Shown: positions 4,524 through 64,000, counted from the first letter of the stretch. The stretch is DNA of 64,000 bases from Patescibacteria group bacterium (GCA_040384565.1 JAZKJC010000003.1:87195-151194), one strand, 5' to 3'. Made by a program: numbers and translations. Notes: generated by a model from the sequence alone, not told the origin.

Positions 4524-4600
4524 TGAAGCCCTCTTGAAGCCCTCCTGTTCATAATAATCTTTTTCCGCGCTTACCCCCGATGCTGGCGGCCAAGCAATCC

Positions 4601-16600: not shown

Positions 16601-18760
16601 GCTGCTGATCGTCAAACCGGTGCCAGTCAGATCGGTGAAGGCATCGCCATTGAACGTAAAGGTGTCGCCGGTCTGAACAGCCAAGTTGCCGTTGGCCGTC
16701 AGCGTGCCGGAGAATGTTCCAGTGCCCGTGACGTCAAAATTACCGCCAAGCAGGCTCAGGTTCCGCGTGTTGTCCAGCTCAAGCGTTGAGCCGTTTTGGA
16801 GTAACCAGCTATCGGCGATAGTCTGGGCACCGCTGAAGTAAGCAATCCGGTTTGTGTTGCCCGTGCCTGTGATGCCGCTGGCCGCATCGCCGTTGTCGTC
16901 TTGACAACCAATGTTACCGGATGCATCTGTCGTCAATACACCACCATTAGCAAAGGTGGTACAGTTTAGTCCTGTTAAGCGTACTTGATCAGCACTGGTC
17001 AGGACAATGTCATTGCCGGCGCCATTGCTGGTAATGGTGGTGGTTGAACCTTGCAATAGAGCCGTTTGGCCAGTTGCCCCAACCGTTAAGGCACCGCCTG
17101 GAGTAATGCTTAACGCCCCGCTGCTTTGCAATAGCGGCGTTGTCACACTTGAGGAAAACGTAGGGTTGTTGATCGTATTAATGCTGTAGGTGCTATTGGC
17201 ACCGCCATCGGAACCGATTAGATTGCCGGTAGGCGTAATAGCTCGTTCACCTGTCAGTGTACCGTCATTGCCTACGGTCACATAGGCTGCACTGTTGGGC
17301 GCCCCGGTGGTATCGCTATCTGTATCACAAGCCCACTGGTTAGCACCATTATATTTGAGGATTTGGTTGAGTCCACAATCGATTAGCGACAGGCCGTTGC
17401 CGTCAACTTCCAAGCCTTTATTGGCTTGTATCGCAAGCGTAATGTCATCAGCGTTTACCGTAATTCCATTTCCGGCACCGATGTTGAGGGTTGTGGCTGC
17501 GCCAAGCGCGACACTACCGCCATTCGTTAGACCGCTACCGGCTGTAACTGTCAGTGAAGAATTGACCAGCTCGAGGTTAGAGATTGTGGGACCCAGTAGT
17601 GACACATTGGCACTAAGCCGTAGATCATTAAGTGTTCCGCTAGCCATATTGCTGGCATTAAGCGCCGTTAAGGCCGATCCATTGCCAGAAAAGGCCACCG
17701 CACTGATATTGCCACTAGCGCTCAAGTCTCCAGCGACTGATACAACACCAAGCGCCTGTGACAATAGGGAATTCTCAATATTTGTAGCTGAGGTAAAGAC
17801 TGGAATTGTGCCAGCAGTTCCGCCACCAGTAGTCACCCCAGCCCCAGCGCCACCGTCATCATTGGCACAAATAACCTGGCCAGAACCATTAGTGGTTAGC
17901 GTACCGCCATTGGTCAGGACACTACAGTTCAGTGGCAATGTTAGCATTCCGCTCATTGACAGATTACCGTTGAGCGTCAAACCAGCAAAGGTTGGTGAGC
18001 TGAGCTGCGCCAAATCCTGGGGCCCAGCCAAGGTAATTGTGCCGTTAGCGGTTGATACTGTAATTTGATTGGCTGTCCCCTGGACAGTGACCACGCCGAC
18101 TTGATTGTTGACCAGACTGGAGGCTGGAATTGCCGGCACAACCACCTGGCCAAGCCGGTTTTGCAGCAAAGCAAGAGTAGCGTTGGTTTGATTGAGAGCA
18201 GCCTGAGTCGCTAGGTTACAGTTATTACTATCCAAACAGAGCGTGCCCGAAGCGTTAGGTAAAATAAACGTTTGGTCGGCTGTGGAATTTTGCGTTTTTA
18301 GAGTGGTCGCGTAGTTGCCATTTGAGAATCTCAACTCGCCGCGGGTCGCCAGGTCACCGTTTACCAGCAATGATTCACGGGCAGTGTTTAGCTCTTTGGG
18401 GATTGTCGATAAATTGGCGTCTTTGAGAGAGATGTCTTGGGGTGTAATTGTCGCTTGCTGGGCTAGTTGATTATCCGAGCCGCGCCGGGCAAAGAACAAT
18501 ATGCTTGCCCCCGTAATTAGTATTACAAATATGGTGATCCCGATTGAAACAATCATGGCCTTTCGGCGGGAGAAAGAAAATCCTCGAAAGTTTGACTCGG
18601 AAGAATAGGTTTGAGCCTGAGAAACAACATTTTGTTCATGCATTTCTAAGGACTCTGCTGGTGTTGGTATTTGAGCACTGTCGTAGAAACCCCCAGAAAT
18701 GGGAGTACTTACCGAGTCGTTTTGACCTGTATTGGCGGTATTAAACCGCTGTTCATCCAT
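4601..18760 (-). CDS. Giant (4,719 aa) membrane-anchored surface protein built from tail-fibre-like modules
   Basis: From the ORF track. A ~66-aa N-terminal tail precedes one TM (AMIVSIGITIFVILITGASILFF, ~18488-18556). Fibre motifs include GILPVGNGGTG and 3x GLEVDGxGLSLIDCxxGEVLKYNGSNQWAC. A repeated ~430-aa super-module runs TTAFQIQ..DTTNSR..LVLDTKNTAGDPTGVNGAxYYNSNTNKFRCFENSAW..TLQxAYNxDADGSDA..TPFVIDQNGxVGIG..GGxGGxG blocks..GNVGIGTxxPxAxLHV. The C-terminus has an ADLAEWIKY..LIGVVS..GRVPVKV block (~5245-5640) resembling a Peptidase_G2-type chaperone domain, and the last ~90 aa look like an H-type lectin. Confidence 0.9.
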   Translation of the reverse strand: MDEQRFNTANTGQNDSVSTPISGGFYDSAQIPTPAESLEMHEQNVVSQAQTYSSESNFRGFSFSRRKAMIVSIGITIFVILITGASILFFARRGSDNQLAQQATITPQDISLKDANLSTIPKELNTARESLLVNGDLATRGELRFSNGNYATTLKTQNSTADQTFILPNASGTLCLDSNNCNLATQAALNQTNATLALLQNRLGQVVVPAIPASSLVNNQVGVVTVQGTANQITVSTANGTITLAGPQDLAQLSSPTFAGLTLNGNLSMSGMLTLPLNCSVLTNGGTLTTNGSGQVICANDDGGAGAGVTTGGGTAGTIPVFTSATNIENSLLSQALGVVSVAGDLSASGNISAVAFSGNGSALTALNASNMASGTLNDLRLSANVSLLGPTISNLELVNSSLTVTAGSGLTNGGSVALGAATTLNIGAGNGITVNADDITLAIQANKGLEVDGNGLSLIDCGLNQILKYNGANQWACDTDSDTTGAPNSAAYVTVGNDGTLTGERAITPTGNLIGSDGGANSTYSINTINNPTFSSSVTTPLLQSSGALSITPGGALTVGATGQTALLQGSTTTITSNGAGNDIVLTSADQVRLTGLNCTTFANGGVLTTDASGNIGCQDDNGDAASGITGTGNTNRIAYFSGAQTIADSWLLQNGSTLELDNTRNLSLLGGNFDVTGTGTFSGTLTANGNLAVQTGDTFTFNGDAFTDLTGTGLTISSGSLQTTLGTSVDLASAEVTGILPVGNGGTGVNGSAAANGQLLIGNGTGYTLATLTQGAGITISNASGSITVTNNFGTEVDLGTETAGNYQASTTGGNGIAVTGTPGEGWTAALGLSNLTANWTQTGAFDIVLDNAASELSIRESSGAFYGTLDVGDLTADRTYTLPNYTTGTGTICLDSGNCAGAGGGITGSGTQNQLSKFGVGGNNIVDSTISDDGTNVTTSVDIIVQGGSATLGTITQGASIVLHDGDGETITLNLPDVSTSYSLLLPGAVGSANQCLKAQDGSGTLFWDACLGGGGGGGLTSIDGQTGPAVTINNATGSSNVITIDDAAADGTTKGIAAFNATNFSAASGVINTIQGISTAATPQFAGLTLTSNLSIGANSIITSGATLTSVELEVLDGGITEGEVSGVITDVTAGAGLTGGAASGNATLTVASGNGGIVVNADDITLTIQANKGLEVDGSGLSLIDCSSGEVLKYNGSNQWACAADNGGGSGDNISVNSTAADDANFLNVAATGTSTATTWTLVGASTPDDISLAIGNASATEAGAVTTGAQTFAGVKTFNNQIVAGGGISLGSQTLQGTTAVIDFTNFDVSSAGAVTAVGVNAGSGLLQGTGGITVGGTATFSSLTNGFLEVDGSGVVSVGTIDLGTDTNGNYVATITAGNGISGTSNTEGGTPTIALSNLTADWLQSGAFDITLDNSSSELKIRESSGAFYAILDVADLAADQTFTLNEGGTVVTSGNVASHATTGVTAGSGLTGGGTVGVLTLNVASANGGIVANANDIALTLQASKGLEVDGNGLSLIDCANGEVLKYETTGNTWICATDGTGTGDDVSVNGTGATGANFLSTAATGTSASVTWTLNVVTNPDDITLAIGNASATEAGAVTTGAQAFAGVKTFNNQIVAGGGIDLAAQTLQGTTAVIDFTNFDVTSGGNTTIAGTLAVQGATATVGTAALQGSLALHDGSGQTLSIRSLNQAANRIVDVPIITSNDTFCLLSLGNCFGTGTGGTLQAAYNAGNTITTTDARNLLVTLANTTTDSSFFVNIASGSNGKFSVQNAGVDAFNISVSGGFTGVSLWDSTNLAVNDGLTVLTGHNSGVGETVLTVNARTSSNLLQLVSDNDAGGIGSASFTVNRNGHTTLQNQLANSTTAFQVLATAGEKALVVDTTNSRVGIAMTALENPSQALTFGNGNRVITILPPSVGASGQTGGNLGIHAAKGFGPTSPAAGGYLDLHGGNSGISGGNGGNAYLYGGTDVVGTLHGNTILAYDIGAAAAIGKVGIGTNTPNATLHVLQQVATSGTPLALRVRAGAHTGLTASTESIDVDFDLSRSVSFATGALATQRAFVIQAPTYNFTGSSTITNAATAAITGPPGTGSNATITNSHALLIQNFSVGAAGITTNAYGLTVNAPTNATGNSYVAQFLGGNVGIGDTSPAYLLTVGNNDKFGVTSAGDLKFEGTTNDANNFTITAADPTASRTYTIPNSSATTDTFCLLTLNNCASSTTLQSAYNADADGSDAIIALTTADDSIIIRNPASSGSDSTYPLTVDQLNTGAFGGMFINSLGTGYALRVDDSSGDTTPFVIDQNGQVGIGTTTLAADLTFGGGVDRSIVVGGNSGGNLTIVAGANTGGTPGRLILRGGNGGAIGSGNNVYVAGGSAAGGNGNVILAHDGTTALGNVGIGDASPAALLTVGSGDLFKVDSSGFVQGNVTTTGTTGNTESTPRTNVTTVTIDAAGSFANNDIIWINNAGQDYYTRIVSGGGTTTLTVSPAVSYDADITITKVNAQSIGATSSAYSTDTNRYFQGYFLGGVVTGAGSTTLSDGNLSSTGNLVLQGAGGNVGIGTTNPTATLHVAGANGNNAGTGGAAPVALRVVGGTGGNGSSGPGGVGADLVLSGGTGGNGSSGNFGGNGGNISITAGNGGDSSNLVARPNGGNITLQAGAQGTGGNSDGVNGNINLQTTNGVVNITGSRVGINISNPNAAFEVLSTSANSAYITADTGAAAYTTTSLMQGLTIRNTNTNSTGFVGISFASSAAANSGNATIGAVRTGTDSNALVFATRCNGCSTTERARIDQSGSLGIGTTAPASMLSVGASNQFQVDSTGNILASGNLISTGNHTLSQGANRTISVAQASSGNGYNLTVQAGSANAGGTGGDLNLNGGSGGSGVSPGGNVRIQGGASGNGTNGGNVYIDGGTTSGTPGNILFSTVTAGRVGIGLSGPSALLHVSGTGGGSSLLRVTDTTATARDVFDIADGGATTFRNQTDSTTAFQIQNAAGTNLLVADTTNSRLQVGSTTADATGALLVLDTKNTAGDPTGVNGATYYNSNTNKFRCFENSAWADCITSASASTLQGAYNADADGSDATIALTTADDSLIFSNPAASGSDSDFVLKVTQLATGASKSGLLLTSAGGSSGYALRVNDDGTDTDSTPFIIDNAGNVGIGLASPTSILHILGPNQATAGAAAVQTLQVTGGTGGNGTTGAGGAGSLLAMLSGTGGVGGVSGGGLGQTGGAGGALTLTGGTGGAGGNGTDGVAGGGVGALGGAINITSGAGGQGGSAGAGTGLDGADGGAGGNINIQTGVGGGGGGDGCGGSCNSGQTGAYGNITMQASGGNVGIGTSTPGALLHVSSTGSTDLFKVTDTSTTAQDVLKVADGGATTFRNQTNSTTAFVVQSTTAGNELFQIDTTNSRIYIGDTTADATAALLVLDTKNTAGDPTGVNGASYYNSNTNKFRCFENSAWGDCISAASTLQSAYNTDADGSDAIVALTTADDSIIIRNPASSGSDSTYPLTVDQLNTGAFGGMFINSLGTGYALRVDDSSGDTTPFVIDQNGRVGIGVTSTPGSMLQVDGPSATTAGAAATPVLQVFGGNGASVAGSAGGNGSLISLQSGNGGSAGQAVGSMNGGNGGVLTLATGSGGQGGLSFNSISAVGGVGGALSVTTGAGGGGGTINTFGGDNGGAGGAFSLTTGVGGAGSQGYNGTNAGSGANGGNITITSGTGGIGGSACPGCEDPDGPGVNGGNGGSGGTITIQGGTGGTGGPAGTGTAGTNGSYGNVILQSSGGFVGIGDATPDAKFDIDATFSPATTGTTTNTGSGLTVSNTVNKTAGTDTTYGQQLTVTRTGATGGTINTYGLDIQATGDTGGTSTLTGLNVNVSGADTNYAALFNGGYVGIGTTTPSALLSVGTGAASNFKVNADGDITSSFTTLNGSTTANGAGTNSTTLILTSATNFDVGNYVQVDPTGANTCSGAVTVCYAKITAIATNTLTISPALTWDNGAAVVEMHIPELGGVDLTQSLTNRYGRGYFIDGIVTGNGSTYFTDKSIQQTVGGSTFNFLDNGNTSTINFGTSATTTNFSGSVTTNTLNVLGPNQPADSGAAAVQTLNVVGGIGGSGADSGNGGTGSSISLASGAGGAGGSGIQFTGNNGGNGAAAGDITISGAIGGAGGNGGEAYYEEAGCGGYCGPGGNGGNGSNGGRLVLQGGAGGNAGSGASGSINGTDGTAGLFGNITLQASGGNVGIGMSSPSRKLDVTGTWGGNVSTTATSDSATTSTVSTAALAYYVQSTDTTGDCNTADKTFNITGLPSSEGTFAYIVSKATDNNCTSNSVDVTVQINGSTIGTVTAANTVNGSVTENYTVAYINGTWRIVGLNSGTAQAANGSDTADLAEWIKYTGTKPQPGDVLTVGDSTVSVKQSTLAYDSKLIGVVSTTPHTVMGTDDGQSVVLALTGRVPVKVSLEGGAIQVGDKLTSSSTPGVAMKASGAGRIIGIALDAYDGTQTGNKVMVQLGIGYNSEPTTDIQGNSATFNTLTILGDATINNLTVTNTITTKDLTVTGTATIQNLTVSGVSTLAELTVTGNAKVQGTLTVTKLVIKDTLIIESHIISRGTAPQAVLGAASGTGTGTPIDPATMPTIALDGTDTTGTISVRTATASNRGVLATIKFNKAFERTPKIVISANDELSLLLQVYVRKTADGFELVAINPAADNTTYNFDYVILAAAPTP
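8112..8307 (-). repeat. Intragenic 196-nt repeat, copy A (100% identical to 11841-12036)
   Basis: Base-by-base comparison of the two stretches. Both encode ..TADDSIIIRNPASSGSDSTYPLTVDQLNTGAFGGMFINSLGTGYALRVDDSSGDTTPFVIDQ. Confidence 0.85.
11841..12036 (-). repeat. Intragenic 196-nt repeat, copy B
   Basis: Identical to 8112-8307. The flanks diverge immediately on both sides. Confidence 0.85.
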
Positions 18761-48431: not shown

Positions 48432-48454
48432 CAATTTATGCTATTATTAAGCTT

Positions 48455-49387
48455 ATGGTTAGTCACGAAGCAGATTCAGGTCAACCTTTTGGCCCAAACC
48501 AAGTTCAGCTTATACCGATCACCCAGCCGGAAGAAGCAGACTTTGTGCTGTCCCGTCAGTCTCTAATGTCTTTTAGCGGCCAACCACCGAAGATTTTCTC
48601 GGACGAAGATCTAAGGGGTCAACTGGAGCGTAATATTAAATCTGTTTACTGGGTTTTAGACCCTAAATATCAGAATCGAGAGGCAAGCCAGCAATGGAGA
48701 TTCGAGATAGACGGTGAGGGCTCCGTAGATGTTTTCAATTTAACCACTGAGACAGAATTTACGCAGGAGCATGCCGATATTTTTACTGCTACGCTCGCTA
48801 AATTTAAGCGTCATTTTCCTTTTGCTACAGATCAACTCGAGACAGTGTTGGTTGATGATACGCTTCCCCCTTCGTTTTATGGAGATCCAAGAAACTTTCC
48901 CACACATGGGTATGCGGTTAGCAGTCAAAGGCTAATGCAATTAACACCGCTAGGACTGGGTTTTCACCCTTATCGACGTAGCCAGATGGATATCCCTACA
49001 TTTCAGGCAACTTTTTGCCACGAACTTGCGCATATTGCCGGACTGGATAGCAAACTCAGCGGAGAGTGGTTTAGTGCAGGTTACCGATGGTACAGTAGCC
49101 CTACAAAGGGTATTGAGATTGTGGCGGATATTCCGAATAAGCCTGAGGAATGTGTTAGTGACTATGCTCAGCTCAAAGGCCAAGAAGACATCTGTGAGTC
49201 GGTTGTCGCTTACTTACTTCAGCCTGAGTTGCTTCGCGCTAAATCCCCAAGAAAATACAACATCCTCGGTAGTATTGACCAATATGACAAAACTGAACCA
49301 GTATCTGTGGTTGGTCAAGAGCAACCGAGCGTAAAAATGCCAACATTGGAAGCAGTACGTTTCTTCATAGACGAATCCATCCGATAG
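48455..49387 (+). CDS. Hypothetical HExxH (HELAH) putative metalloprotease
   Basis: Start trimmed to MVSHEADSG.. at 48455, because the upstream part of the tracked ORF overlaps the KGG gene and its leader. The motif is FCHELAHIAG. Confidence 0.55.
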   Translation: MVSHEADSGQPFGPNQVQLIPITQPEEADFVLSRQSLMSFSGQPPKIFSDEDLRGQLERNIKSVYWVLDPKYQNREASQQWRFEIDGEGSVDVFNLTTETEFTQEHADIFTATLAKFKRHFPFATDQLETVLVDDTLPPSFYGDPRNFPTHGYAVSSQRLMQLTPLGLGFHPYRRSQMDIPTFQATFCHELAHIAGLDSKLSGEWFSAGYRWYSSPTKGIEIVADIPNKPEECVSDYAQLKGQEDICESVVAYLLQPELLRAKSPRKYNILGSIDQYDKTEPVSVVGQEQPSVKMPTLEAVRFFIDESIR

Positions 49388-49419
49388 ATAGCCCCATATC
49401 TAATACTTTTCGAAATGAT

Positions 49420-49920
49420 CTATTGCTTAACCGGAGCTGTAGTTCCCGCCCCCACAGTCGCACTACTAGTAGCTTCCACCACTTTCTTGGTGGATGGCCT
49501 ATATAGTATGGCACGGACGGATTTGTCTGGGGAGACATATAGCAGCACTACGTCGCCGTTCTGAGCGTTTTTGAAAAAAGCGTTTTCTGTTGCCAGCTTT
49601 TTAGCGTCTTTGACAGGTATAAGGCTGGGCGTTAAATCTGTTGGTAGCTCTACAACCTTGCCAATCTCTTCCTGATACTTCAGAGCGTCAGTTTGGCCAT
49701 CGGATGATTGGCTGGTAAATTGTTTTTGGACTTCTTCTTTGAGCTTGTTCCGATCATTAAGTAGAAAAATAAAGCCAAGTATTACTGCTAAAGCAACTGC
49801 GGCCATTATTACTGTGTTTTTGGAAAGTCCATGTATACGAGGCACAACTAGGCTAGGCTCAGCAGCAGCGACCTGCTGCTTGGACTGGTCGATTGGGACT
49901 TGGATTCGTACTCGCGCCAT
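49420..49920 (-). CDS. Small single-pass membrane protein immediately downstream of giant gene 2
   Basis: ORF track. TM is VIMAAVALAVILGFIFLL. It starts 27 nt after the giant gene stop. Confidence 0.6.
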   Translation of the reverse strand: MARVRIQVPIDQSKQQVAAAEPSLVVPRIHGLSKNTVIMAAVALAVILGFIFLLNDRNKLKEEVQKQFTSQSSDGQTDALKYQEEIGKVVELPTDLTPSLIPVKDAKKLATENAFFKNAQNGDVVLLYVSPDKSVRAILYRPSTKKVVEATSSATVGAGTTAPVKQ

Positions 49921-49947
49921 TCTACTCTCCGTTATGCTTATAGTTTA

Positions 49948-52900
49948 TCATTGTTGGACGAAGGTGTTGGGGTTATTTACGCTTATAGCGGTCCAGGTGA
50001 ATTGCAAGTCCTGGGTAGCGGGTTGCGCCAGAACTATATCGAAGCCAGTGGCAGTTACATTATTGTGACTATACTGGGCAAATTTGCCGCCGCCAAGCGC
50101 CAAGGTTATGATTGGAGGCTGGCCATACGGTTTGCTAAATGAAACGTGAACAGAGCTGGCTCCTGATTTAATTACGGCGTAACCACCGGTGTTGTTGTTG
50201 AATGAAGCATTGCCATTAAAGACTACATCCTCATTAAATACGGCTGGTTTAGCAAAGGTTACAAGGCCACCGAATATGCTATCGCCGCTAAATTGCGCCT
50301 GGCCATTTACCAATAATGAGCCGTTAATTAGGGCGTTCAAGTCTGCCGTAATGTTGCCGACATGCAAGTTGTTTAAATCAATAGCGCCGTTTTGGTTGAC
50401 TTGAGTTTGCAAGCTGTTGATTTGGTTCTGGAGCTGAGCGTAAGAATCCGCGTCGCCACCAAAGTAGCTTGAACCAACCATTACCAGCACCTCACCCTGG
50501 CCTGCTCCACCGTAAGACGTAACGGCTGTACCGATGATAGGGCCAGCGCCACTGGCTTTGGTGGCTACGCCGGGCGTAATGGAAGATGTCAGTGGGTCGC
50601 CAACAGCGACTGGACCTTGAACCTTGACCGATACGCGTCCAGCTGAAGCCACGTTCACCGTACCTTCGCTATCGGCCTGACTGGTATCAGCTACAACCCC
50701 TACCAAGCCCTTCTGGAATGACGCCGAAGATTTGCGCAATAAGCCTTGTTCGTCAGCACTTACAACATCACCTGCACTGACCGGCTCTGCCACCCTGTAA
50801 GGTGTTGCTACATAATTGGTGATAATGCTGCTTACATCAATGGTTTCAGCGTGTATATTAACCAGTTGGTCTTCGGTTATAGTATCAACTTTCGCGGAAA
50901 GCTCTTGGATGGCAGATGCCAAGATGCCAGTGAATGATTGATAATCAATTCCAAGATAATCACCTACCCCGTAACGCTCGCTTACAAGCTCAGGCAAGAG
51001 TTCTTGGACTTCCTGGGCTATAAAGCCATAATGGATTCCAGTATTATTATCATCGTGTGCTACCTCTGAATATAGATCATTAAATGTATAGCTCACAGCA
51101 CGTAGTTGATTAACTGTATCGAGTGCACTGCTTATAGTGTTAACGTCCTGTTTTAAGCGCGCATCAGATATACCAGCGTCGGCCGCACAATTCCAGACAG
51201 AACTGGCGTCAACCCATTTGAGAATTTCATTATTAGCACAGCCTTGGAGCAAACCAATGCCACCTGTACCAGCTTCGAGCCCAGAGCCATTGCTTATAGC
51301 ACCCGCGCCATCACCCGCGATAAAGTCGTTTTGGTCGACCAGTGCCGCGTCTTTGCCATCAAGACGGTTAAACTCTGTGGCATTGACATTCACCGCGTTA
51401 ATCACAAAAGCAGTTGAGGCGTTGCCAGTCAATGTAACCGTATCGAGCGCTGAGCCCACACTAATAGTATCGGCAGTGGTGTTGTTGGTGCCTATTTGTA
51501 TGGTATTGCCAGATGTGCCCAGACCAAGCTGGATGGTCTTTACGCCATTGCCCGAACCAAGCGTGATGCTCTCTGCTGACGTGTCAGTCCCAATAGCAAT
51601 AGTGCCGGTCGTACCGGAATCAATGGTAAGGTTTGTACCTGCGGCTGATGATACTGTGACCGCGCCAAGGCCGGTATAACTCTGGCCAGCTGCTACGGAG
51701 ACTCCGGCGTCACTGGTGAGGCTATCAGCATTTAAGGCGTCCTGTATATCCACGTTACCGGCCGCATTGATAGCTAGCGTGGCTTGGGTAGAAGTAATCC
51801 CCCCATTGGCGGCTACCGCGCCTGTGAATGTGCCGCCAGCACCGGTGAATATCGTGCTACCAGCAGTGCCTATCGTCCCGGTAGTGGTAATGGTGTCAGT
51901 GCCGACGTTTATACTACCGAAGTTAGCGGTGATTGAGCCAGCGTCTAACGCGCCCGTGCCAATAATGGCTGTCGTCACGGCGTCATCTGCATCCAATAGT
52001 GCGGCGGTTTTGCCATCAAGACGATTAAGTTCAGTCGCGTCAATTGTGTTGCCACCCAGGACAATCGTAGAACTGGCGCTACCTGTTAAGGCCAGTGTTC
52101 CGGTGCCATTTCCAATAGTCGTATTCGCAGTGCCGCTGTTATTGATTTGGGCGGTGCCAGTTATAGTTATACCGTTAGTCCCCTGTATCAAACCAGCACC
52201 GGCGTTCAGTCCAGCACTTGTCAGGGCACCGGCGACTGCTACCGTACCACTGCTGTTACCAAGGTTAAGCATTGTGGCCGCACCGCCAATCCGAAGCGTA
52301 GTTACAGTGGTGTTTAGCAGGTCGAAACTGGCCAATGAGCTATCGATGTTATTCTCGTTATAATAAGTTGTCCCGTTCCCTGTGGCAACACCGCTAATGA
52401 AGTAACCGCGGCCATAGCGATTCGTCAGGGTTTCAGCAGTATTAGTGGCACCGATTTCCGGGACGTGGTACTCGTTTACCGTTGAAGTATTCGCCCAAAC
52501 CAAAGCCGGGGTAATTGTTAAAGTATTGGTTGCCTTGGCCGTGATCTTGGCATAACAGATATCAACCGTACCACTACAGTCAGTACTATTGACTTGCACA
52601 TAATTCCCGACGTCAAAGCTGGCAGCGCTTGTCAGGGTTAAGCTGGTAGATGGTATGACAGCGGCACCGTTAGCTGTTGACGTGCCATCCAGGGCCGTGA
52701 AAACACTAGTTATATCACCGCTCGTATTCACGCTGAATTTGTTGCTCGCGGCCGTAAGCGTGGTACTGAATGTACCGCTAGCTCCCGTGAAAGCCGTGCT
52801 GCCGGCAGTACCTATCGTCCCGGTGGTAGTAATTGTATCGGACCCTACGTCTATGCCGCCAAAGTTAGACGTTATGCTGCCGGCATCTAATGCTCCAGTG

Positions 52901-55900
52901 CCTGTAATTCCCGTATAACTGCCAGATATATGACTCGTCCCTAACACGCCGGCAACCTCAGCCGTAGCCAGGTCAACAGCGGTAGTGGTGCTACCGGAGC
53001 CAACGAACAGGCTGGCGGTTAGGGTGTCACTGACATCAGCGTCGGTAATGCTGGCACAGGTCAGGTTGCCACTAGCGGCAATGGCGTTAGCGAACTGGTT
53101 AGCACTACAGTCGGTGGGGTTGGCGGCTAGAGCTGTGGCCGAGGTAGCCAGGGCGGCCAGGTCAATCGTGATGTTGTTGGGGATGTCAGCGTCAGTGATG
53201 GCGGCACAGCTTAGGTTGCCGTTCGCGGCAATGACGTTAGCGAACTGGTTGGCGGCACAATCGGTGGGGTTAGCCGCCAGGGCGCTGGCAGTAGAGGCGT
53301 TGCCGGTTAAGGCACCACTGAAGGTAGTGGCCGTAATAGTGCCGTCTAGGGTTAGGTTAGTGACGAATGAACCATTGGTATTAGTGAAGTCGATGGTGAT
53401 GTTGGCGGCACCGAGGTCAGCCGGGCCGCTTTGCAGGTTCGTAGCCCGTAAGTTGCCGGCTACTTCGGCAGTCGCCAGGTCAACGGCGTCAGTAGTGCTT
53501 CCTGGGCCCGCAAAAATACTTGCCGTAAGGCTATTAGAGACATCCGCATCAGTTATGCTGGCGCAAGTCAGGTCTCCATTTGCGGCAATTGCATTGGCAT
53601 ACTGGTTAGCCGAACAGTCAGTGGGGTTAGCGGCAAGTGCCGTGGCGGTAGTGGCGTTGCCACTTAGGGTACCGCTGAATGTAGCGGCTGTAATACTCCC
53701 GTCCAGGGTGAGGTTAGTAACGAATGATCCGTTAGTGTTACTAAGGTCTATTGTAACGTTAGCCGCGCCAAGGTCAGCAGCAGCACTTTGCAAGTTTGTA
53801 GCCCTTAAGTTACCTGCTACCTCAGCCGTGGCCAAGTCAATGGAATCTGTAGTGGAGCCGGAACCGACGAAGAGGCTTGATGTTAGGGTGTTCGAAACAT
53901 CAGCGTCAGTAATGCCGGCGCACGTGAGATTGCCATTAGCCGCTATGGCGTTGGCAAATTGGTTGGCGGCACAGTCGGTTGGGTTTGCGGCTAGGGCGCT
54001 GGCTGTGCTGGAGTTGCCGGTTAAGGCACCGATAAAAGTGGTGGCGGTAATAGTACCGTCAGTTGTTATATTCGTATTAAAGGAACCATTGCTGTTGCTG
54101 AAGTTAACCGTAACGTCAGCCGCGCCCAGGTCCGCAGCAGCACTTTGTAAATTGTTAGCCCGCAAATTGCCGCTTACTTCGGCGCTAGCTAAATCTACAG
54201 CATTGCTGGTGCTGCCGGAGCCAACAAGGTTAACCGCGGTAGTCGCATTGGCGGCGAGGTCGATAGTGATGCTGTTTGGTATGTCGCCATCTGTTAGGGC
54301 AGCACATGTCAGATTGCCGTTAGCGGCAATGACGTTTGCGAACTGGTTGGCGGCACAGTCGGTTGGGTTTGCGGCTAGAGCGGAGGCTGTTGATGCGTTA
54401 CCACTCAGGGCGCCACTGAAGGTCGCAGCGGTTATAGTCCCGTCTATGGTCAGATTAGTCACGAACGAACCATTGGTATTACCAAGGTCAATAGTCACGT
54501 TGGCGGCACCCAGATCCATTGCGCTGTTCTGCAAATTGCTGGCGCGGAGGTTGCCGGCTACCTCAGCCGTACCGAGGTCAACAGCATTAGTAGTGCTGCC
54601 AGAGCCAATTAGGTTGGTGGCATTTGTCGCGTTTGTCGCATTGGTTGCATTGGTTGCATTGGTTGCATTGGTTGCATTATCAATGGTGATGGAATTCGGA
54701 ACGTCCGCGTCTGTGATAGCAGCACACGTCAGGTTTCCGTTGGCAGCAATAGCCGTCGCGAACTGGTTAGCAGCACAATCTGTTGGGTTGGCAGCTAGAG
54801 ACGTCGCGCTCGCGGCAAGGTCAACAGTGATGTTGTTAGGGACATCAGCGTCGGTCAGGCCAGCACAGGTTAAATCACCATTGGCAGCAATGGTAGTTGC
54901 AAACTGGTTAGCAGCACAATCATTAGGGTTACCGGCCAAGGCAGACGCAGTGGAAGCATTCCCTGTTAATGCCCCGACAAATGTGGCGGCGGTTAGTGTG
55001 CCGTCTATTGTCAGATTAGTTACAAATGCTCCGTTAGTATTGCTCAAGTCAATGTTTACATTAGCGGCGCCAAGGTCAGTGCCGGCGCTCTGAAGATTGA
55101 CCGCGCGCAATGTCCCTGCCACTTCAGCTGTCGCGAGATCTACGGCATTAGTCGTACTACCACTTCCTACTAGATTGGTTGCGTTCGTGGCATTTGTCGC
55201 GTTATTAATTGTGATTGAATCAGGCACATCGGCGTCGGTGATGCTTGCGCATGTTAAGTTACCGTTCGCGGCTATGGTGGTTGCGAACTGGTTGGCCGAA
55301 CAATCGGTTGGGTTACCAGCAAGCGCGCTAGCAGTAGTAGCGTTACCAGTCAAAGACCCTACAAAAGTTGCGGCTGTAACCGTACCATCGAGTGTCAGGT
55401 TAGTTACAAATGAACCGTTTGTGTTGGTAAGATCTATACTGACATTTGCCGCGCCAAGATCGGTACCAGCGCTCTGCAAGTTAGTGGCCTTAAGGTTACC
55501 GGCGACTTCGGCGGTGGCCAGGTCTACAGCGTTACTGGTACTACCGGAGCCGATAAGGTTCGTGGCATTTGTAGCGTTAGTTATGGTAATGCTGTCTGGA
55601 ACATCCGCGTCAGTTATCGTGGCACAGGTGAGGTTACCATTGGCGACAATGGCGTTGGCGAACTGGTTGGCCGAACAGTCGGTGGGGTTGGCTGCGAGCG
55701 CGCTCGCCGTAGCGGCCAGATCAATCGTTATAGAGTTGGGGATATCCGCGTCAGCAAGAGCAGCACATGTCAGATTGCCATTAGCTACGATGGTGGTGGC
55801 AAATTGGTTTGAGCTACAATCTGTCGGGTTAGCTGCCAAAGCGCTTGCCGTTGAAGCGTTTCCTGTTAATACACCGATAAAAGTTGCTGCTGTAATTGTA

Positions 55901-58900
55901 CCGTCTAAGGTCAGGTTGGTAACAAAGCTGCCGTTAGTGTTGCTCAGGTCAATAGTCACATCGGCTGCGCCGAGGTCAGCGGCGGCAGATTGCAGATTGC
56001 TAGCCCGCAAATTACCTGCGACTTCCGCGGTAGCCAGGTCGATAGCACTACCAAGCTTCGTCACGTTGGCACTTAAAGCACCGTCCGCTACTGAACCGCT
56101 GGCTGAAACGCTGAGCGCGTCAGTTACCTCACTATCAGCCCAGGCGAAGCCCAGAGTACCACTATTGGTAAGTTCATCTTTGGTGATTGTCGCACCAAGC
56201 TTGGTGACGTTTGCGCTAAGGGCGCCATCCGCAACCGTACTGCTCGCCCCTACAGTAAGCGTATCTGGTATATCGGCGTCTGTGAGCGCAGCACAGGTCA
56301 GGTCTCCATTAGCAGCAATTGCGTTGGCGAACTGGTTGGCGGCACAATCGGCTGGGTTAGCGGCAAGCGCAGTTGCTGTCGTGGCATTACCCGAGAATGA
56401 CCCTGAGAATGAAGCGGCTGTAACCACGCCATCAATGATGAGATTCGTGACAAAACTGCCATTGGTATTGCTTAAGTTGATAGTCACGTTCGCAGCCCCC
56501 AGATCAGCGCCAGCATTCTGCAAATTCGTAGCCCTAAGGTTACCGGTCACTTCACTCGTCCCCACATCTATGCTGGTTCCTAGCTTAGTAACATTGCTAC
56601 TGAGCGCGGCATCATTCACCGAGCCGGAAGCACCGATAGTGATCGTATCGGATATTTCGCTATCGGACCAAGTAAAGCCTAAAGTGCCGCCACTTGATAA
56701 TTCATCCTTGCTGATACTTGAGCCAAGAAGACTAACGTTGGCGCTTAACGCCCCGTCCGCCACCGAACCGCTAGCTGAAATAGTGATACCGTCCGGTACA
56801 TCCGCATCGGTAAGTGCCGCGCAAGTGAGATTCCCGTTAGCTACGATGGCAGTAGCGAATTGGTTTACCGCGCAGTCGGTAGGATTTGCGGCAAGCGCGC
56901 TGGCGGTCGTGGCATTACCCGATAAAGCACCGCTGAAAGTGTTAGCCGTAATGGTACCATCAAGTGTTAAGTTCGTAACAAACGAGCCGTTGGAATTACT
57001 GAGGTCAACGGTAATATTCGCCGCTCCAAGGTCAGCGGCGACAGATTGCAGATTGGTAGCCAGGAGATTGCCGGAGACTTCAGCTGTTGCCAAATCAACC
57101 GCAGTTGTAGTGCTGCCGGAGCCAACGAACAGGCTAGCAGTTAGGGTGTCACTGACATCGGCGTCGGTAATGCTGGCGCAGGTTAGGTTCCCGTTGGCGG
57201 CAATTGCATTGGCATACTGGTTAGCACTACAGTCAGTTGGGTTAGCGGCTAAGGCGGTGGCAGTAGCGGCAAGGTCAATAGTAATGGAGTTTGGTATGTC
57301 AGCGTCAGTGATGGCGGCACAAGTCAGGTTGCCGTTGGCGGCAATGACGTTGGCAAACTGATTGGCGGCACAATCTGTGGGGTTGGCAGCTAGGGCGCTG
57401 GCCGTTGAGGCGTTGCCGGTTAAGGCACCGCTGAGGGTAGTGGCGGTAATGGTACCATCTAAGGTTAAGTTAGTTACGAATGAGCCATTAGTGTTGGTGA
57501 AGTCTATGTTAACATTGGCGGCACCCAGGTCAGCTGGGCCACTTTGCAAGTTAGTGGCCCGAAGGTTGCCTGCCACTTCAGCCGTGGCCAGGTCAACGGC
57601 GCCAGTGGTGCTGCCACTACCGACAAGGTTAGTAGCGGTGGTAGCTAGGGTGGCTAGATCGATGGTGATGTTGTTAGGGACGTCAGCGTCAGTGATGGCC
57701 ACGCAGGTCAGGTTGCCACTAGCGGCTATGGCATTGGCGAACTGGTTGGCACTACAGTCCGTGGGGTTGGCAGCTAGGGCTGTGGCAGTCGTCGCGTTGC
57801 CGGTTAAGGCACCAATGAAGGTGGCGGCTGTGATGCTGCCATCTAGAGTCAGGTTAGTAACGAAGGCTCCGTTAGTGTTGCTAAGGTCTACGGTAACGTC
57901 AGCGGCACCTAGGTCTGAGCCGGCATTTTGCAAGTTAATGGCCCGGAGGTTGCCGGCTACTTCCGCCGTGGCCAGGTCAATGGCGGTAGTCGTGCTACCT
58001 GAGCCGACGAACAGGCTGGCGGTCAGGGTGTCAGAGACATTGGCATCATTTATAGCCGTACCATTCCATACACCGACGGTGATAGTACCACCAGACACAC
58101 TAAGGCCGTTAACTGCGCTTGAACTTAGGGAACCGCCAGATATAGTTGCAGTGTTAATGGTGCCGGTAGTAATCAGCGTACCTGCCACGCTTGCGCCACT
58201 GGCGGTAACATCAAAGTATGAGGAAGTACCGCCGCTGTTCTGGACGGCAAATAGTGAAGTACCGAGCGGTGTAGAATTATCCCGTATAAGTAAGCTGCCG
58301 TCAGCACCATTCAGATTGACGATGACATTACTGCCGTCGACATCGTTATCGTATACGTTTTGGAGAGTCGGCGCTGAACCAGTGCCGTTATCGGCGGCAC
58401 AAGCCCATTGGTTAGACCCATTATATTTCATTATTTCGCCGGCGGTACAATCGATCAGCGACAGGCCATTTACATCAACCTCTAGGCCCTTATTAGCTTG
58501 CAGGCTGAGCGTAATGCTGTCAGCGACTACAGAGATACCATTGCCCGCCCCTACTGCCAAACTGGCGGCTATGCCCTCGCCGCTGGCATCCCCTGTCAGA
58601 CCGTTGCCGGCAGTTATACTCTGGATATAATTTCCGGTAGTGTCAGTCCCTAGAACAACACTGTCTACGCCGACATTAAGACCGCCGCTGAAAGAGCCGG
58701 TTATGTCACCCGCTGCTGGTGATTCTCCGACGTTTACGTAAATACTGTCTAGTGTTGTAAAGTAGTTCGCATTAGTCAGAACCGTGCCAGTCGCACCACT
58801 AAATGTATAGGTTGCCGGCGCCCCGGGAGTAGCAAACGTAAGTGTTACATCATTGGTGCCTTTTTCTAGCTTAACGTCACCATTCTCAAGAATACGTATA

Positions 58901-61900
58901 ACTTCGCTGCCAGCGGTATTAAAGATTATGTCGTCTGCTCCGGCAGTCGCAGTTGTCCCTATAGTAATAGCGCCGGCGTTTTGCAGCGTTGGTGTCGTAA
59001 CCGAGCCAGTAAAGCTTGGGGAGTTAGTAATAGAAATACTGCCGCAGTTTGTACCAGTTGTACCTATCGTGACCGTCGCGCCACCACCGCTTAAGTTGCC
59101 GGTTCCACTGGCACAAGTAAATGTATTTGCGCCAGCGGCCGCATTGTTGGCACTGGAGCCATAAAGTACGCTCAAGGTTGGAACTGAACCTTCACCGCTG
59201 TTTCCAGTGGTTGAGAGACCGGTGAGGGTACCTAGATTGGCTACGTAGTCGCCGGTGGTGTCAGTTGTTAACGCAACACTGTTAGCCCCGACATTAAGGC
59301 CAGCACTAAAGCTGCCGGTGATGTCTCCGGCTGCTGGAGACTCACCGACATTGACGTAGATGCTGTCGGTGGTAGCGGTGTAGTTGCCCGTAGTCAGGAT
59401 GGTGCCTGTGGCACCTGATAGGGTGTAAGTGGCTGGGGCACCGGAAGGCGTACTTACCGCCAAGGTTACATCGTTTGTGCCCTTTTCGAAGAGTAGGTTA
59501 CCACTTTCCAGGATGCGAACCTTTTCCGTTCCAGCGGTTTCAAAGATGATGTCATCACTACCAGCGGTGGCCGTGGTGCTGATTATCATAAAGCCAGTGT
59601 TCTGCAGTAGCGGAGTTGTGACGCTGGTACTGAAGGCTACGGCATTATTAGTCGTTAGGTTATTACAGCTGCCGCCTGTACCCAGGGTGATGGTGTTACC
59701 ACCACCGCTTAAGTTGCCCGTGCCACTGGCGCAGGTGATAGTGGTGTTACCTTGGACGGCAGTATTGGCAGCGGAACCGTAGGCTACGGCCAGGCTGGTT
59801 GAGCTGCCTAATGCAACACTGCCACCACCGGACAAGCCGTTTCCGGCACTGACAGTTATAGATGAATTCTGAAGAGCGCCGTTAGCAAGCGTTGTTGTCC
59901 CGGCAGCCGTTAGTCGACCCTGGGCGTCGACTGTAAAGGTGGGAACAGCCGTAGTTGATCCATAAGAATTGGCCGTAACTGAGGTATCAGCCAGGTTAAG
60001 CGTCGCACTGCCACCCAGGCTAATGGCTCCGCCGCCAGACAAACCAGTACCAGCGCTAACTGTCACTGCGCTGTTTACTAAGTCCCCATTTGTCACCGTG
60101 CCATTTACTATCTTGCTGCCGTTAACACTATCAGCTTCCAGCTCACCTAAACCAATAGTTTGGCCTAGCAAAGTGACATTGGCGCTGAGGCGCAGGTCAT
60201 TTAATGTCCCACTGCTTACGTTACCGGCATTAAGGCCAGTCAGGGCGCTACCATCACCGCTGAAGGCTCCGCCAATGATTGTGCCCGTCACATTAATATG
60301 GCCAGCCTGGGGAGTACCAGGAGTAGCAGGCTGCAGTGAAACGCAGCCGGAACAGCTATTAAGGCCTGTGATCGCTACATTGGCCGCGCCAGTAATCCGA
60401 CCTTGCTGGTCCACGGTAAATTGGCCAACTTGCGTAGCTGAGCCATAGTTTCCTGCCGTAACAGCGGTATCTGCCAGATTCAATGTCGCGCTGCCACCCA
60501 GGCTAATGGCTCCGCCGCCGGACAAACCGGTACCACCGCTAACAGTCAGTGAACTGTTCTGCAATTTAGCGTTGGTAACATTGCCATCGGCAATCTTAAC
60601 AGTCGTAACAGCGTTATTGGCTATTGTGCCCATACCACTGGCATTAACCGTCAAATCACCACCCAATGCCTGCGTGACCCAGCTTGTACCATTACCAATC
60701 AGTAAATTACCGCTGGTAGGCGTGGTGGTGCCAAGTGAGCTGCCATTAATTTTACTGACAGTTGGGTTAGGATAGCTACCGCTCAAGTCGCCACCTGCTG
60801 TTCCACCCGGAGCAACGCCACTAATAACGGTATTTGTTACGTTTGTTATCCTGCCCTTGGCATCCACGGTGAATACCGGCACTTCCGTGCTGCTGCCATA
60901 AGTGTTAGCAGAGACACCTGAGTTTGCCAACGTCAATAAGCCGGAAGCAGCTAACAACGCGTCACCAGAGAGGCTTACAAAGCCCGGTACGCCACTACCA
61001 TTCGCAACCAGCAGTTGCCCAGTTGTACCAGCGGTCGTTGCCTGGACAGCTCCGGTACCATTGCCATACAACACACCATTACTGGCAAGAGTTGACACGC
61101 CTATACCACCGTACTGTACGCCAATAGTGGAGCCTTGCCAGACGCCACTGGTAAGCGTCCCGACACTGGTAATGTCAGTAAGGTTACCAGTGGTAATAAG
61201 CATGCCGTTAACATTAGGCACCGTAAGTGTACGCGTAGTCCCAACATCTACGCCCGCAACATTAAACATTGCTTTCTTGGTATTGTCGGTACTGTCCTGC
61301 AATGTAAAGCTATTGTTATTGAAACTCCAGTTACCACTGATAACTTCAGCATTCGTGCGCCGCGTGATACCTGAATTCGTGTAATCAAGCCCTATGTTAG
61401 CCCGTCCAGCTGGCGTCTCGGTGACAGTGAAATCATTGTTGGCGTAGTTAAGAGTATTAATAGTATTAGATATGGTTACGCCGCCCTGCTGCATGGTTAG
61501 CGCGCCGGCATTGAGGTCAGTGGCGCACTCCCACAGGCTCGTGCCACTATTCCACTTAAGTATCTGGTTACCCGCACAGCCGCCGATAAGGCGTAGGCCG
61601 TCCGTACCCAGTTCCAGTCCGGAGTTAGAATTAACAGTTCCCGTTGTGCCGGTAGTAGCAACATCCAGGGCTATAGAAGTGGCTGCATTTTCCGAACCCG
61701 AACCTGTAACCGTAAGGCCAGTTCCCCCGGTAAGGGTTGCTACGTAATTTCCCGCTGTGTCTATGCCCAGGACAACGCTGTCAGCACCTATGGCCGTGAC
61801 GCCGCTACTATTGACTGTAACATCGCCTGTCATAACCTGGCTAACCCAACTTGTACCATTGCCAACCAGCAGCGCTCCGCTACTTGCGTTTGTACTACCT

Positions 61901-64000
61901 AGCGATACTCCATTAATACGGGCTACCGTTGGATTGGGATACGATCCGCTTAAGTCACCACCCGCTATTCCACCTGGTGTTACACCGCTAATAGTCGTAT
62001 TGGTTACCACAGTAACTCGGCCTTTAGCATCTACCCCAAAGACCGGTACTTGGGTAGCGCTACCATACGTTGCCGCAACAACACCTGAATTTGCCAATGT
62101 AAAGGTTCCGGTTGAGCCTAAGGTCGCATCGCCAGATAACGTTGTAAATGTTGGTACATTGGTGGCATTAGCAAGGAGTAATTGACCACCACTTCCAGGT
62201 GTTGTAGCTTGCACAGCACTAGTTCCGTTGCCGTATAAAACGCCGTTGGCCGTTAGAGATGTAGTCCCAGTGCCGCCGTATTGGACCGCGACAGTCGAGC
62301 CCTGCCAGACCCCACTCGTCAGGGTGCCAACGGCTGTTATATCCGTCAGGTTACCTGTCGTAACAAGGGTACCGTTAGTATTCGGAGCCGTAAATACCCT
62401 TGTTGTACCCGCGGTAATACCGGAAAGTTCAAAAACTATTTTCTTAGTTGAGTCGGCATTATCCTGAAGCGTGAAGCCAGCATCAGTGAAATTCCAATTT
62501 CCACTAATAATTTCGTTGGCGCTGCGGCGCGTAATGCCAGAAGTAGCATAATTGATAGCCAGATTAACTGCCGCGTTTTCCGTGCCAGATCCGGAAACCG
62601 TAAAGTCCGAGCTGCCAGTCAGGCTGGAGACATAATTGCCTGTCGTGTCTGTCCCAAGAGCCACAGAGTTTGGCGCAACGCTTAGGCCACCAGAGAAACT
62701 TCCTGTAATATCACCCACCGCTGGGGACTGATTTTCGTTCACATATATAGAATCAAGCGTCGCCGCGTAATTGGTTGTCTGCAAAACATTATTGCCAAGC
62801 CCTATCCTGACCTGGCCACCACCCAGTGATGTAACTATAAATTCATCTGATGAGCTTACCGCGGGCCCAAATTGTATATTCGTGGCACTCATGACAACCA
62901 CGCTGCCATCTGAAGACTGTACGTTCACAGCACTACCACCGGCATCCGCATTACAGATCCAGGCACTGCCATTCCATTTTAGAATCTGGCCACTGGAACA
63001 GCCGCCTACTAGACGCAGCCCCTGGCTACTTGTCTCCAGCCCGGAGGCTGAACTTGTTGTCGTAGTGCTACCACTGGCTGCGACCCTTACTTCAACCTTG
63101 TTTGAAAGTACCTCGGTACTAACCCCTGTTTGGACACCAAGGCTTACGCTGCCGCTTGAACCGCCGCCGAACAAACCAAGCCCGGCGCTAACTTCATCTA
63201 TATCGCCGGATGGACTATTAGTATTATTGGTACTGGTATTCGAGGTTGGTGGCTGGCTGACATATGTGGTCCCTCCGCCTCCACCAGCCCCCCTAAGGGC
63301 CATAATAGTACTTACCGACAAGTTATTCAGCTGGATGGCACCGTCGCCAATCTGAGTACCCGTAATAGACTTATCTTTAATTTGCTTGCCTGTTAATGGC
63401 AATACGGCCAAGTTGCCGTCTTTATCACCCGGTTCACGGCCTTGGACAAACTGGCTGTTAAGATTAGCAACCAAACCTTGGTCAGGAATGTTTATATATG
63501 ATGAGTCAGGCACGCTAAGTACATATTTACTTTCGATATTGCCGTCTTTATCAGGTGCAAATATATCGTTGACATCTTTTATAGCGTCATTTGGTTTGAT
63601 GTTGGCAGCCAGATCTGGATTAACAATACCCGCGACACTAAGCGCGGAGTTAGTAACAGGACGTAATATCCGGGCAAATATACTTGGTGATTTGGGCTCT
63701 ATATAGTGTCTGCCTAAGTGATTAGCGGGTGTATAACCAAAAATATTCGCCATTGCGCCTGGCGCGGTCAGGAATAGGCCGGCGCAGGACACTATTAAAG
63801 CAGCTAGCAATACCGCCGAGCCAATAGTCGCACGCTGCCAGACTGGCAACCTAAGGAACCACCCAGGAGTAGGTAGTTGCACTTTGGGTACTTGCCAGTG
63901 AGGGCGAGGCGTAGAAGCCTGGTGTTGAGGGGCGTTTACGATACTTGGAGTAGAAGCTACTTCCGCTGCCGCAATAGGTATGTCTAAAGCTATAGTAGGA
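49948..64000 (-). CDS. Giant (at least 4,644 aa) membrane-anchored tail-fibre-like surface protein; the 5' end is possibly outside the window
   Basis: The ORF track starts at GTG 63882. By hand, the same frame stays open to 64000 (..[47 protein letters not shown]..). TM is [19 protein letters not shown]. Fibre motifs are [15 protein letters not shown], [19 protein letters not shown] and GLRLxGGCxxxQILKWNxxxxWxC. It also has a ~1,700-aa tandem array, a Peptidase_S74 motif, a G2-like barrel and an H-lectin-like end. Confidence 0.9.
   Translation of the reverse strand, partial: [4683 protein letters not shown]
50870..51168 (-). other. Peptidase_S74-type intramolecular chaperone / autocleavage domain inside giant gene 2
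   Basis: [11 protein letters not shown] (Ser codon 51168-51166), ..[10 protein letters not shown].., ..[17 protein letters not shown].., ..[22 protein letters not shown]. Confidence 0.8.
52950..58045 (-). repeat. Coding tandem array (~5.1 kb; units ~350-560 nt; 15 Cys-loop copies)
   Basis: The repeating module is [110 protein letters not shown]... I counted 15 ANPxDC..LTC loops in the translation. Confidence 0.85.
54616..54678 (-). repeat. 9-nt microsatellite encoding (Asn-Ala-Thr)x7 inside the array
   Basis: The plus strand has GGTTGCATT four times perfectly (54643-54678) plus three degenerate units. It translates as [28 protein letters not shown]. Paralogous units carry only (NAT)2 or (NAT)3. 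Confidence 0.85.

Follow-up and report, generated by a model that had tools for sequence, protein, structure and literature searches.

A giant reading frame encloses the Cys-loop array

The window analysed here, meaning the whole stretch of DNA of 64,000 nucleotides (nt), comes from a Patescibacteria group bacterium (GCA_040384565.1, JAZKJC010000003.1:87195-151194). Its closest loci in the species-level genome collection are in metagenome-assembled genomes (MAGs) of Candidatus Saccharibacteria / Saccharimonadales. An initial annotation, made from the sequence alone, had described a tandem array with 15 Cys-to-Cys loops at 52950-58045, an extent close to the 52933-58092 measured here. It was silent on the minus strand, on the enclosing open reading frame (ORF) and on the Peptidase_S74 (S74) end of the protein. 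The whole array lies inside a minus-strand frame of 4,644 amino acids (aa) at 49948-63882 (Table 1). Since this frame continues without a stop as far as window position 64000, the true N-terminus lies beyond the window. The N-terminus present in the window aligns to the orthologue at locus L001 from residue 180 on. In the orthologues the same hydrophobic segment is found, placed after two helix-turn-helix (HTH) domains. Long plus-strand ORFs over the region (702, 754 and 422 aa) are read as antisense by-products of the repeat.

The whole giant protein is a mosaic of repeated modules. Its N-terminal part contains a super-repeat of ~470 aa, a repeat of ~205 aa lies ahead of the array, and further modules are common to a second giant protein encoded in the window. 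The array itself is poor in charge: Lys, Arg and Glu together make up less than 2% of its residues, and there are almost no charged residues except Asp.

The array is built on a Cys-loop module of 44 aa, in which a GNAxTAxALAANPxD lead-in is followed by C-x16-C. A regular expression for NPxDC-x16-C finds exactly 15 loops (aa 2043-3609, window 53056-57756), the number originally counted, and the module profile, run over the giant protein, scores these same 15 sites (62-71 bits each) and no others. The loop had been given a Cys-to-Cys length of 21 aa; the spacing is 18 residues inclusive, and 21 is apt for the motif taken together with its NPTD lead-in. The modules are distributed over 11 long units of 119-176 aa, each with an ungapped 99-aa core ending in the module (DLATAEVAGNLRATNLQ...GNAxTAxALAANPTDC-x16-C...TDAD), and 4 short units of 47-50 aa, which are little beyond the loop module itself. 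After each long unit comes zero or one additional short unit, in agreement with the earlier description of a long module with one or two loops. The Ser/Gly-rich inserts also mentioned there were found twice, each of ~76 aa.

One of the linkers is an Asn-Ala-Thr run arising from a 9-nt tandem repeat (7.2 copies, 89% matches), of which 2-3 copies are seen in other linkers. Compared with shuffled sequences, the array has 1.6-fold more N-x-S/T triplets (72 vs 45 ± 5), a comparison in which the repeats are not independent. The N-A-T run could be a slippage-prone length variable, or it could provide glycosylation sites. The ~30-aa lead segment of the long units (SDTLTASLFVGSGSTTTAVDLATAEVAG) is also found where Cys loops are absent: in the homologue P0008 it is itself tandemly repeated, and it matches MAG loci (L010-L019) of Planctomycetota, Ignavibacteria, Kapaibacteria, Nitrospiraceae and Hyphomicrobiales. 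Because this segment occurs apart from the Cys loops, the long unit is a composite of smaller modules.

Four Trp-type Cys loops (GC..GQILKWN....W.C) lie elsewhere in the giant protein. Their layout resembles that of the array loops; despite this similarity by eye, the array Cys-loop profile detects none of the four. After self-cleavage by the S74 domain described below, the loop at 51187-51240 would come to lie next to the newly made C-terminus, at a distance of four residues (ADAGI).

The C-terminal end carries an S74 domain and a predicted lectin-like knob

The C-terminal 445 aa of the giant protein were modelled, and two parts of the model are confident. One is the Peptidase_S74, or intramolecular chaperone (ICA), domain, which matches Pfam PF13884 over aa 4239-4300 with 60.6 bits against a cut-off of 22 (E 1.8e-16). 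Its SDARLK sequence fits the catalytic S-D-x-x-x-K motif, and an alignment of 22 sequences shows hardly any variation at its S, D, R and K. The domain is modelled with a predicted local distance difference test (pLDDT) score of ~90, and Foldseek matches it to the MyRF ICA domain (7dc3, E 7e-5) and weakly to 3gw6.

The other confident part is a C-terminal knob of predicted H-type-lectin-like fold. Its match to H_lectin (PF09458; 21.3 bits, E 3e-4) is under the cut-off of 24, and the homologue P0253 has a precomputed PF09458 match. Foldseek finds the H-type lectins 4q56, 2ccv and 3wmp (E 7e-4 to 4e-3, template modelling score ~0.53), and further fold matches are to knobs at the C-termini of several tailspikes and the R2 pyocin fibre. 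Other family members keep the S74 domain and the C-terminal extension together as a unit. The region between S74 and the knob (50191-50865, aa ~4340-4564) is shared with P0252 and, in part, with the second giant protein; its pLDDT is below 50 over most of it, and it has no family match. A YadA-type C-terminal beta-barrel anchor, as in trimeric autotransporter adhesins, has no Pfam match in the protein, whose anchor is the N-terminal hydrophobic helix.

The Cys-loop module is widespread and found in phage tail fibres

The initial annotation had not recognised the motif as a named family, and this stands. Pfam-A and NCBIfam have nothing over the array (NCBIfam was run on both giant proteins), and the sequences of the PDB gave 0 matches at E up to 10, either by phmmer with the array or by hmmsearch with the module profile. 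Among 66 family members scanned there is no common Pfam domain covering the loop. A literature search for this protein family in Saccharibacteria or the candidate phyla radiation found nothing specific.

The module is neither rare nor private. The first homologue search returned 259 proteins, mostly of 200-500 aa with 1-5 copies. The search with a hidden Markov model of the loop, which had been suggested at the outset, showed how widespread it is: against 1.84 billion cluster representatives, the 44-position profile matched at least 3,398 clusters at E<=1e-3, of which 1,598 at E<=1e-10. Giant proteins head the list of matches; they are 2,491-5,554 aa long and have 9-17 copies each. From 209 instances the consensus is N-A-x-T-A-T-A-L-A-A-N-P-x-D-C-x-A-(N/G)-Q-(F/Y)-A-x-x-I-A-A-x-G-(N/D)-L-T-C.

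In viral contigs, a scan of IMG/VR gave 138 confirmed stretches. The small homologues P0014 and P0111 are encoded on phage contigs of 32-42 kb, directly after genes for the tape measure, Dit, Baseplate_J and Mu-Gp48, and since they stand directly behind baseplate genes they occupy the tail-fibre position. Some homologues bear Phage Tail Collar, PTR, BppL_N, Phage_fiber_C or S74 domains, and in some the loop region is overlapped by PHROG tail-fibre families. In the small homologues the module lies between attachment regions and variable C-terminal domains of receptor-binding type. When two loop modules were compared by tblastn with 50,697 deposited phage genomes, a single weak match was returned (MW202477, E 5e-4), by which the module is essentially absent from cultured phages. 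The module is a widespread building block without description in any curated library, and it merits a family definition, which would improve the annotation of environmental-phage tail fibres and of giant surface proteins.

Loops are predicted hairpins and the cysteines occur in close pairs

AlphaFold2 was run on aa 3449-3617 (two and a half units) as a monomer, with an alignment of the internal repeats and homologues. The mean pLDDT of the model is 70, and both loops are predicted as beta-hairpins (pLDDT ~78-83). When instances of the module are anchored on the lead-in alone, Cys is present at both positions in 519 of 547; the 26 examined that have only the first are spacing variants or truncations. 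Beyond the membrane segment the giant protein has 46 cysteines, which fall into 23 pairs 3-23 residues apart, with at least 30 residues from one pair to another. None of 20,000 random placements matched this pattern, even for the 16 cysteines outside the array. Because both cysteines are so regularly kept, all cysteines of the protein are in close pairs and those of the module bracket a predicted hairpin, the two module cysteines are most likely joined in a local disulfide, by which the hairpin would be stapled once outside the cell.

The units are old and the copy number differs among relatives

The 11 cores have a mean identity of 79% at the amino acid level and 70% at the nucleotide level (range 64-85%). 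Synonymous sites are near saturation (proportion of synonymous differences, pS, 0.79), the corresponding nonsynonymous value (pN) is 0.128 and pN/pS is 0.16. The units are old and under purifying selection, and are not recent duplicates. This divergence makes an assembly collapse unlikely and homologous recombination between units inefficient in this genome. Tandem Repeats Finder does not detect the array, since the units vary in length and share only ~70% of their nucleotides. The DNA similarity noted earlier between 53040-53150 and 57140-57250 amounts to 23% identity at that literal offset, and reaches 79% once the segments are placed in register (offset 4122). Copy-number change by recombination holds for the family, but ready recombination is not supported for this genome, where pS is as high as given above and the longest exact direct repeat of the region is 35 nt.

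A Logan short-read contig (run SRR26324625; L108) matches window 48082-53320 with 100% identity across 5,239 nt, stopping inside the array at 53320. It confirms that end of the sequence, and it shows that short-read assemblies break in the repeats.

Orthologues at the same locus have different numbers of modules. L001 has 7 in a protein of 2,704 aa and L006 has 4. L003 has 15, arranged as five apparently identical super-repeats of 331 aa (148 + 136 + 47 aa) with three Cys-loop modules each (L003 5255-16849, aa 1434-3079 of a 3,865-aa ORF). The sequence of these super-repeats indicates a recent amplification, in contrast to the diverged units of the window. In relatives, short runs of (G-N-V-T)n or (N-A-T)n also alter the lengths of the units. 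That the copy number varies while the locus keeps its position suggests that the length of the fibre has been tuned in evolution.

Potential role of the giant protein

On balance, the array is probably the stalk of a giant, membrane-anchored and presumably homotrimeric surface fibre with which a Saccharibacterium attaches to its host. Trimer formation, the disulfides, the length of the fibre and the role in host attachment are what we infer here. The stalk would be assembled from short modules of phage-tail-fibre type, and repetition of the module, alone or behind the beta-rich 99-aa core, would lengthen and stiffen it. The distal end of the protein would thereby be held out from the cell. In characterised proteins S74 folds, and then cleaves, trimeric fibres (PMC10769870). 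As in these known members, the S74 domain of the giant protein may drive trimer folding and then cut itself off, and the lectin-like knob would be the likelier binding part. The fibre of Bdellovibrio Bd3182 is reported to cleave itself at residue 782 and to be ~550 Å long (PMC10769870). Scaled from it, the array (1,720 aa) would measure very roughly 100 nm and the whole extracellular part perhaps a few hundred nm. Saccharibacteria are epibionts that require adhesins for epibiotic growth (PMC10633639), and for this reason the most likely function is that of attaching to the host cell or recognising it. Apart from type IV pili, little is known of the means by which Patescibacteria reach and grip their hosts; the conserved giant-fibre locus is a concrete candidate in Saccharibacteria, for which genetic tools now exist.

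Several observations weigh against this interpretation. Phage tail fibres fold in the reducing cytoplasm, where the conserved Cys pair might serve another role than a disulfide. The structure prediction of two to three units, which the initial annotation had recommended, supported the loops as hairpins but left the 99-aa core in the monomer model as extended chain or coil (pLDDT ~60-80) without regular secondary structure; such an extended core is what would be expected of an intertwined oligomer modelled as a monomer. A Foldseek search of the array model against PDB and BFVD returned noise only, because the monomer model is mostly extended. Moreover, S74 is not terminal: ~300 residues, including the lectin-like knob, come after it, and canonical self-cleavage at Ser4238 would therefore detach the supposed binding tip from the stalk.

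The initial annotation had offered two structural ideas, a stacked, disulfide-stapled shaft and a multivalent ligand-binding surface. With the loops predicted as hairpins and all cysteines in close pairs, the shaft is the better of the two. In the multivalent surface each Cys-clamped hairpin would bind a ligand such as a cell-wall glycan, the 15 copies together giving strong binding. The surface elements are indeed regularly repeated, and the loops share an aromatic residue (F/Y at +5), besides Asn, Gln and Asp that could contact sugars. However, the loops are nearly invariant within the array, with conservative changes only and no hypervariable positions, and they are near-identical across phages and bacteria of unrelated phyla, which must differ in their targets. 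The module lies upstream of the variable receptor-binding-type domains in the small homologues, and the giant protein has a dedicated lectin-like tip. Nearly invariant loops with few charges, purifying selection and the position of the module in the small homologues together favour a structural role over 15 binding sites, so that the multivalent surface is unlikely. It is somewhat more doubtful still that the same stalk uses its Cys pairs to bind metal on or near the three-fold axis instead of forming disulfides. Metal sites are established in trimeric phage fibres, His residues binding the metal in T4 gp37 and gp12, and the module is conserved in phage tail fibres, which are folded in a reducing compartment. 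Yet the two cysteines bracket a single predicted hairpin of one chain, no conserved His or Asp partners stand beside them, and all other cysteines are also in short-range pairs, including C-x2-C and C-x6-C, typical of extracellular disulfide-rich proteins.

A protein of the cell coat or a spacer, S-layer-like or a fibrillar envelope without a specific role in host recognition, would account for the low-charge composition and for the presence of two giant Ala/Thr/Gly-rich membrane-anchored proteins within one 64-kb window. It would not explain an end of phage receptor-binding type, with S74 and a lectin-like knob, or a module common to phage tail fibres, and is improbable. Phage-like modules and an S74 end could also belong to a tail-fibre gene of a prophage or phage, and the stop of the short-read contig in the array might point to an assembly artefact with a wrong copy number. 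Both are very improbable. The 64-kb window has no phage structural genes, and no baseplate or tail gene module such as a virion tail fibre would accompany; the neighbours of the giant gene are housekeeping genes in an order conserved across species of Saccharibacteria, and the protein has a membrane anchor. Units with the nucleotide identities and short exact repeats given above are unlikely to collapse, and the independent contig agrees at every position it covers.

An extension of the fibre interpretation concerns the N-terminus. The L001 and L003 proteins start ~180 aa earlier than the listed start, with two HTH_17/MerR-type domains (Pfam E 7.6e-18 and 6.4e-21) and then the membrane helix, and five of the eight largest family members listed (P0123-P0126 and P0128) open with the same HTH-plus-helix start. 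In the present locus these domains would fall beyond 64000, the frame being open over window 63883-64000. It is unusual for DNA-binding domains to be tethered to an extracellular fibre of giant size. It is conceivable, though improbable, that the full protein is a membrane-tethered transcription factor fused to a phage-type fibre, with host-cell contact at the tip or S74 processing relayed to gene expression. If true, the protein would resemble MyRF in its logic, as a bacterial counterpart, and would allow an epibiont to sense host attachment directly.

Comparison with known fibre proteins

The nearest known systems are the mosaic adhesive trimer (MAT) fibres of Bdellovibrio, bacterial surface trimers ending in S74 that are used for prey recognition (PMC10769870). 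The likeness is drawn from their published description (PMC10769870). Both the S74 subgroup of MAT proteins (Bd3182) and the giant protein are encoded in the cellular genome of a bacterium living on other bacteria. Both are long, modular, phage-like fibres with an S74 chaperone/protease carrying SDxxxK, and both belong to mosaic families with variable tips. MAT proteins are ~1,000 aa long; behind their signal peptide lies an N-terminal domain of ~130 aa that is beta-rich and conserved (PMC10769870). The giant protein, in contrast, has at least 4,644 aa and a membrane anchor, and its orthologues have two cytoplasmic HTH domains; its stalk has the Cys-loop module 15 times, and ~300 residues with the knob follow S74. 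Phage-like S74-bearing surface fibres of bacteria living on bacteria are thus known in kind, and the general nature of the protein is foreseeable. New with respect to MAT are the far larger size, the membrane anchoring, a stalk module in no curated library and the extra domains after S74.

The fibres of uncultivated tailed phages (P0014, P0111; IMG/VR L029-L107) share the 44-aa module, with identical C-x16-C spacing and an identical type of lead-in. They are virion parts of 200-500 aa with 1-5 copies, whereas the giant protein is chromosomal and membrane-anchored and has 15.

Another phage repeat, GNAxTATKLxTARxIxGxxFDGxxNI of P1 S and P2-like gpH fibres, occurs in 619 phage records. It has the lead-in GNAxTAxxL in common with the Cys-loop module, but its second half differs and has no cysteines. 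By hhalign only the nine-residue lead-in GNAATATKL aligns (E 0.06), and the P1/P2-type consensus is not reproduced in the module; on sequence this is a resemblance, and homology is not established. Lambda Stf was rejected as a carrier of GNAxTATKL, the motif being absent there and present in P1 S and P2-like gpH. Two family members hold both the classical P1/P2 motif and the Cys loop. In L006 (aa ~1398-1435 of a 3,868-aa ORF) a classical P1/P2-type motif, QTARNIGGVSFNGSADIT, stands in the place of a Cys loop, after the usual linker '...PNNITIDLATAATTL' (...IDLATAATTL), which suggests that the two types of module are interchangeable.

With the ICA/Peptidase_S74 proteins (K1F endosialidase, T5 pb1, MyRF) the giant protein agrees in S74 sequence, Ser/Lys motif and fold. 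In the phage ICA proteins S74 is the C-terminal end and is discarded, whereas in the giant protein a conserved region and the lectin-like domain lie beyond it.

Genomic setting

The giant gene is a chromosomal gene at a conserved position. The window encodes isoleucyl-tRNA synthetase, a class II ribonucleotide reductase with NrdR, FtsZ, FtsA, methionine aminopeptidase, adenylate kinase, PriA, Fmt, IF-2, S1 and a ROK kinase. The order giant gene - orf166 - ROK - S1 is kept in five Saccharibacteria contigs, with an S1 identity of 80-87%. The gene orf166, for a predicted membrane protein, has no Pfam match; it is kept in the same position in L001, L003, L004 and L005. Locus L003 carries it twice, the additional copy lying upstream of its own giant gene. 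Its product may be a partner or assembly factor of the giant protein.

The GC content of the giant gene at third codon positions (GC3) is 0.50, a value within that of the housekeeping genes' range. Overall, the giant gene is richer in GC, which had hinted at recent horizontal transfer; the excess comes from second codon positions, that is, from the Ala/Thr/Gly/Ser-rich composition, and such a transfer was rejected.

Table 1. Features of the giant-fibre locus, in window coordinates
Feature	Position	Strand	Residues (aa)	Remarks
Giant ORF	49948..64000	-	at least 4,644	listed start GTG at 63882; frame stop-free to window edge
Hydrophobic transmembrane / signal-anchor segment	63760..63828	-	19-41	ATIGSAVLLAALIVSCAGLFLTA; read in translation
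Three Trp-type Cys loops	62953-63000; 61525-61578; 58399-58449	-		regular expression
Tandem array	52933..58092	-	1931-3650	11 long + 4 short units, 15 Cys-loop modules
Eleven ungapped 99-aa cores, overall span	53185..57978	-	starts 1969, 2097, 2263, 2439, 2615, 2787, 2915, 3102, 3230, 3349, 3468	DLATAEVAGNL...C-x16-C...TDAD
Cys-loop module 1	57673..57804	-	2027-2070 (Cys 2043, 2060)	regular expression + profile, 70.9 bits
Cys-loop module 2	57289..57420	-	2155-2198	regular expression + profile
Cys-loop module 3	57148..57279	-	2202-2245	short unit; regular expression + profile
Cys-loop module 4	56791..56922	-	2321-2364	regular expression + profile
Cys-loop module 5	56263..56394	-	2497-2540	regular expression + profile
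Cys-loop module 6	55735..55866	-	2673-2716	regular expression + profile
Cys-loop module 7	55594..55725	-	2720-2763	short unit; regular expression + profile
Cys-loop module 8	55219..55350	-	2845-2888	regular expression + profile
Cys-loop module 9	54835..54966	-	2973-3016	regular expression + profile
Cys-loop module 10	54694..54825	-	3020-3063	short unit; regular expression + profile
Cys-loop module 11	54274..54405	-	3160-3203	regular expression + profile
Cys-loop module 12	53890..54021	-	3288-3331	regular expression + profile
Cys-loop module 13	53533..53664	-	3407-3450	regular expression + profile
Cys-loop module 14	53176..53307	-	3526-3569	regular expression + profile; AlphaFold2 hairpin
Cys-loop module 15	53026..53157	-	3576-3619	short unit; regular expression + profile; AlphaFold2 hairpin
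Ser/Gly-rich insert 1	56569..56796	-	2363-2438	~76 aa; ...SASGSVADGALSANVSLLG...
Ser/Gly-rich insert 2	56041..56268	-	2539-2614	~76 aa
(Asn-Ala-Thr)7 linker	54613..54681	-		from 9-nt tandem repeat
Trp-type Cys loop C-ANNEILKWVDASSVWN-C	51187..51240	-		directly ahead of S74 cleavage motif; regular expression
Peptidase_S74 / intramolecular chaperone domain	50866..51171	-	motif 4238-4243	with S-D-A-R-L-K motif
C-terminal beta-sandwich, predicted H-type-lectin-like fold	49972..50190	-	4565-4637	pLDDT ~90
orf166, small membrane-protein gene	49420..49920	-	166 in all	immediately downstream of giant gene
Second giant ORF	4601..18760	-	4,719 in all	N-terminal membrane segment, Gly-rich repeats

The second giant ORF has Trp-type Cys loops (LSLIDC..GE.LKYNG.NQWAC) and two C-terminal regions common to the first giant protein, with 50% and 38% identity; it has no S74 motif and none of the module present in 15 copies in the first. 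Just downstream of it, at 3239-3778 and 3841-4455 on the minus strand, a pair of neighbouring ORFs encodes domains of IS200-like Y1 transposases (E 1.2e-34 and 3.2e-11).

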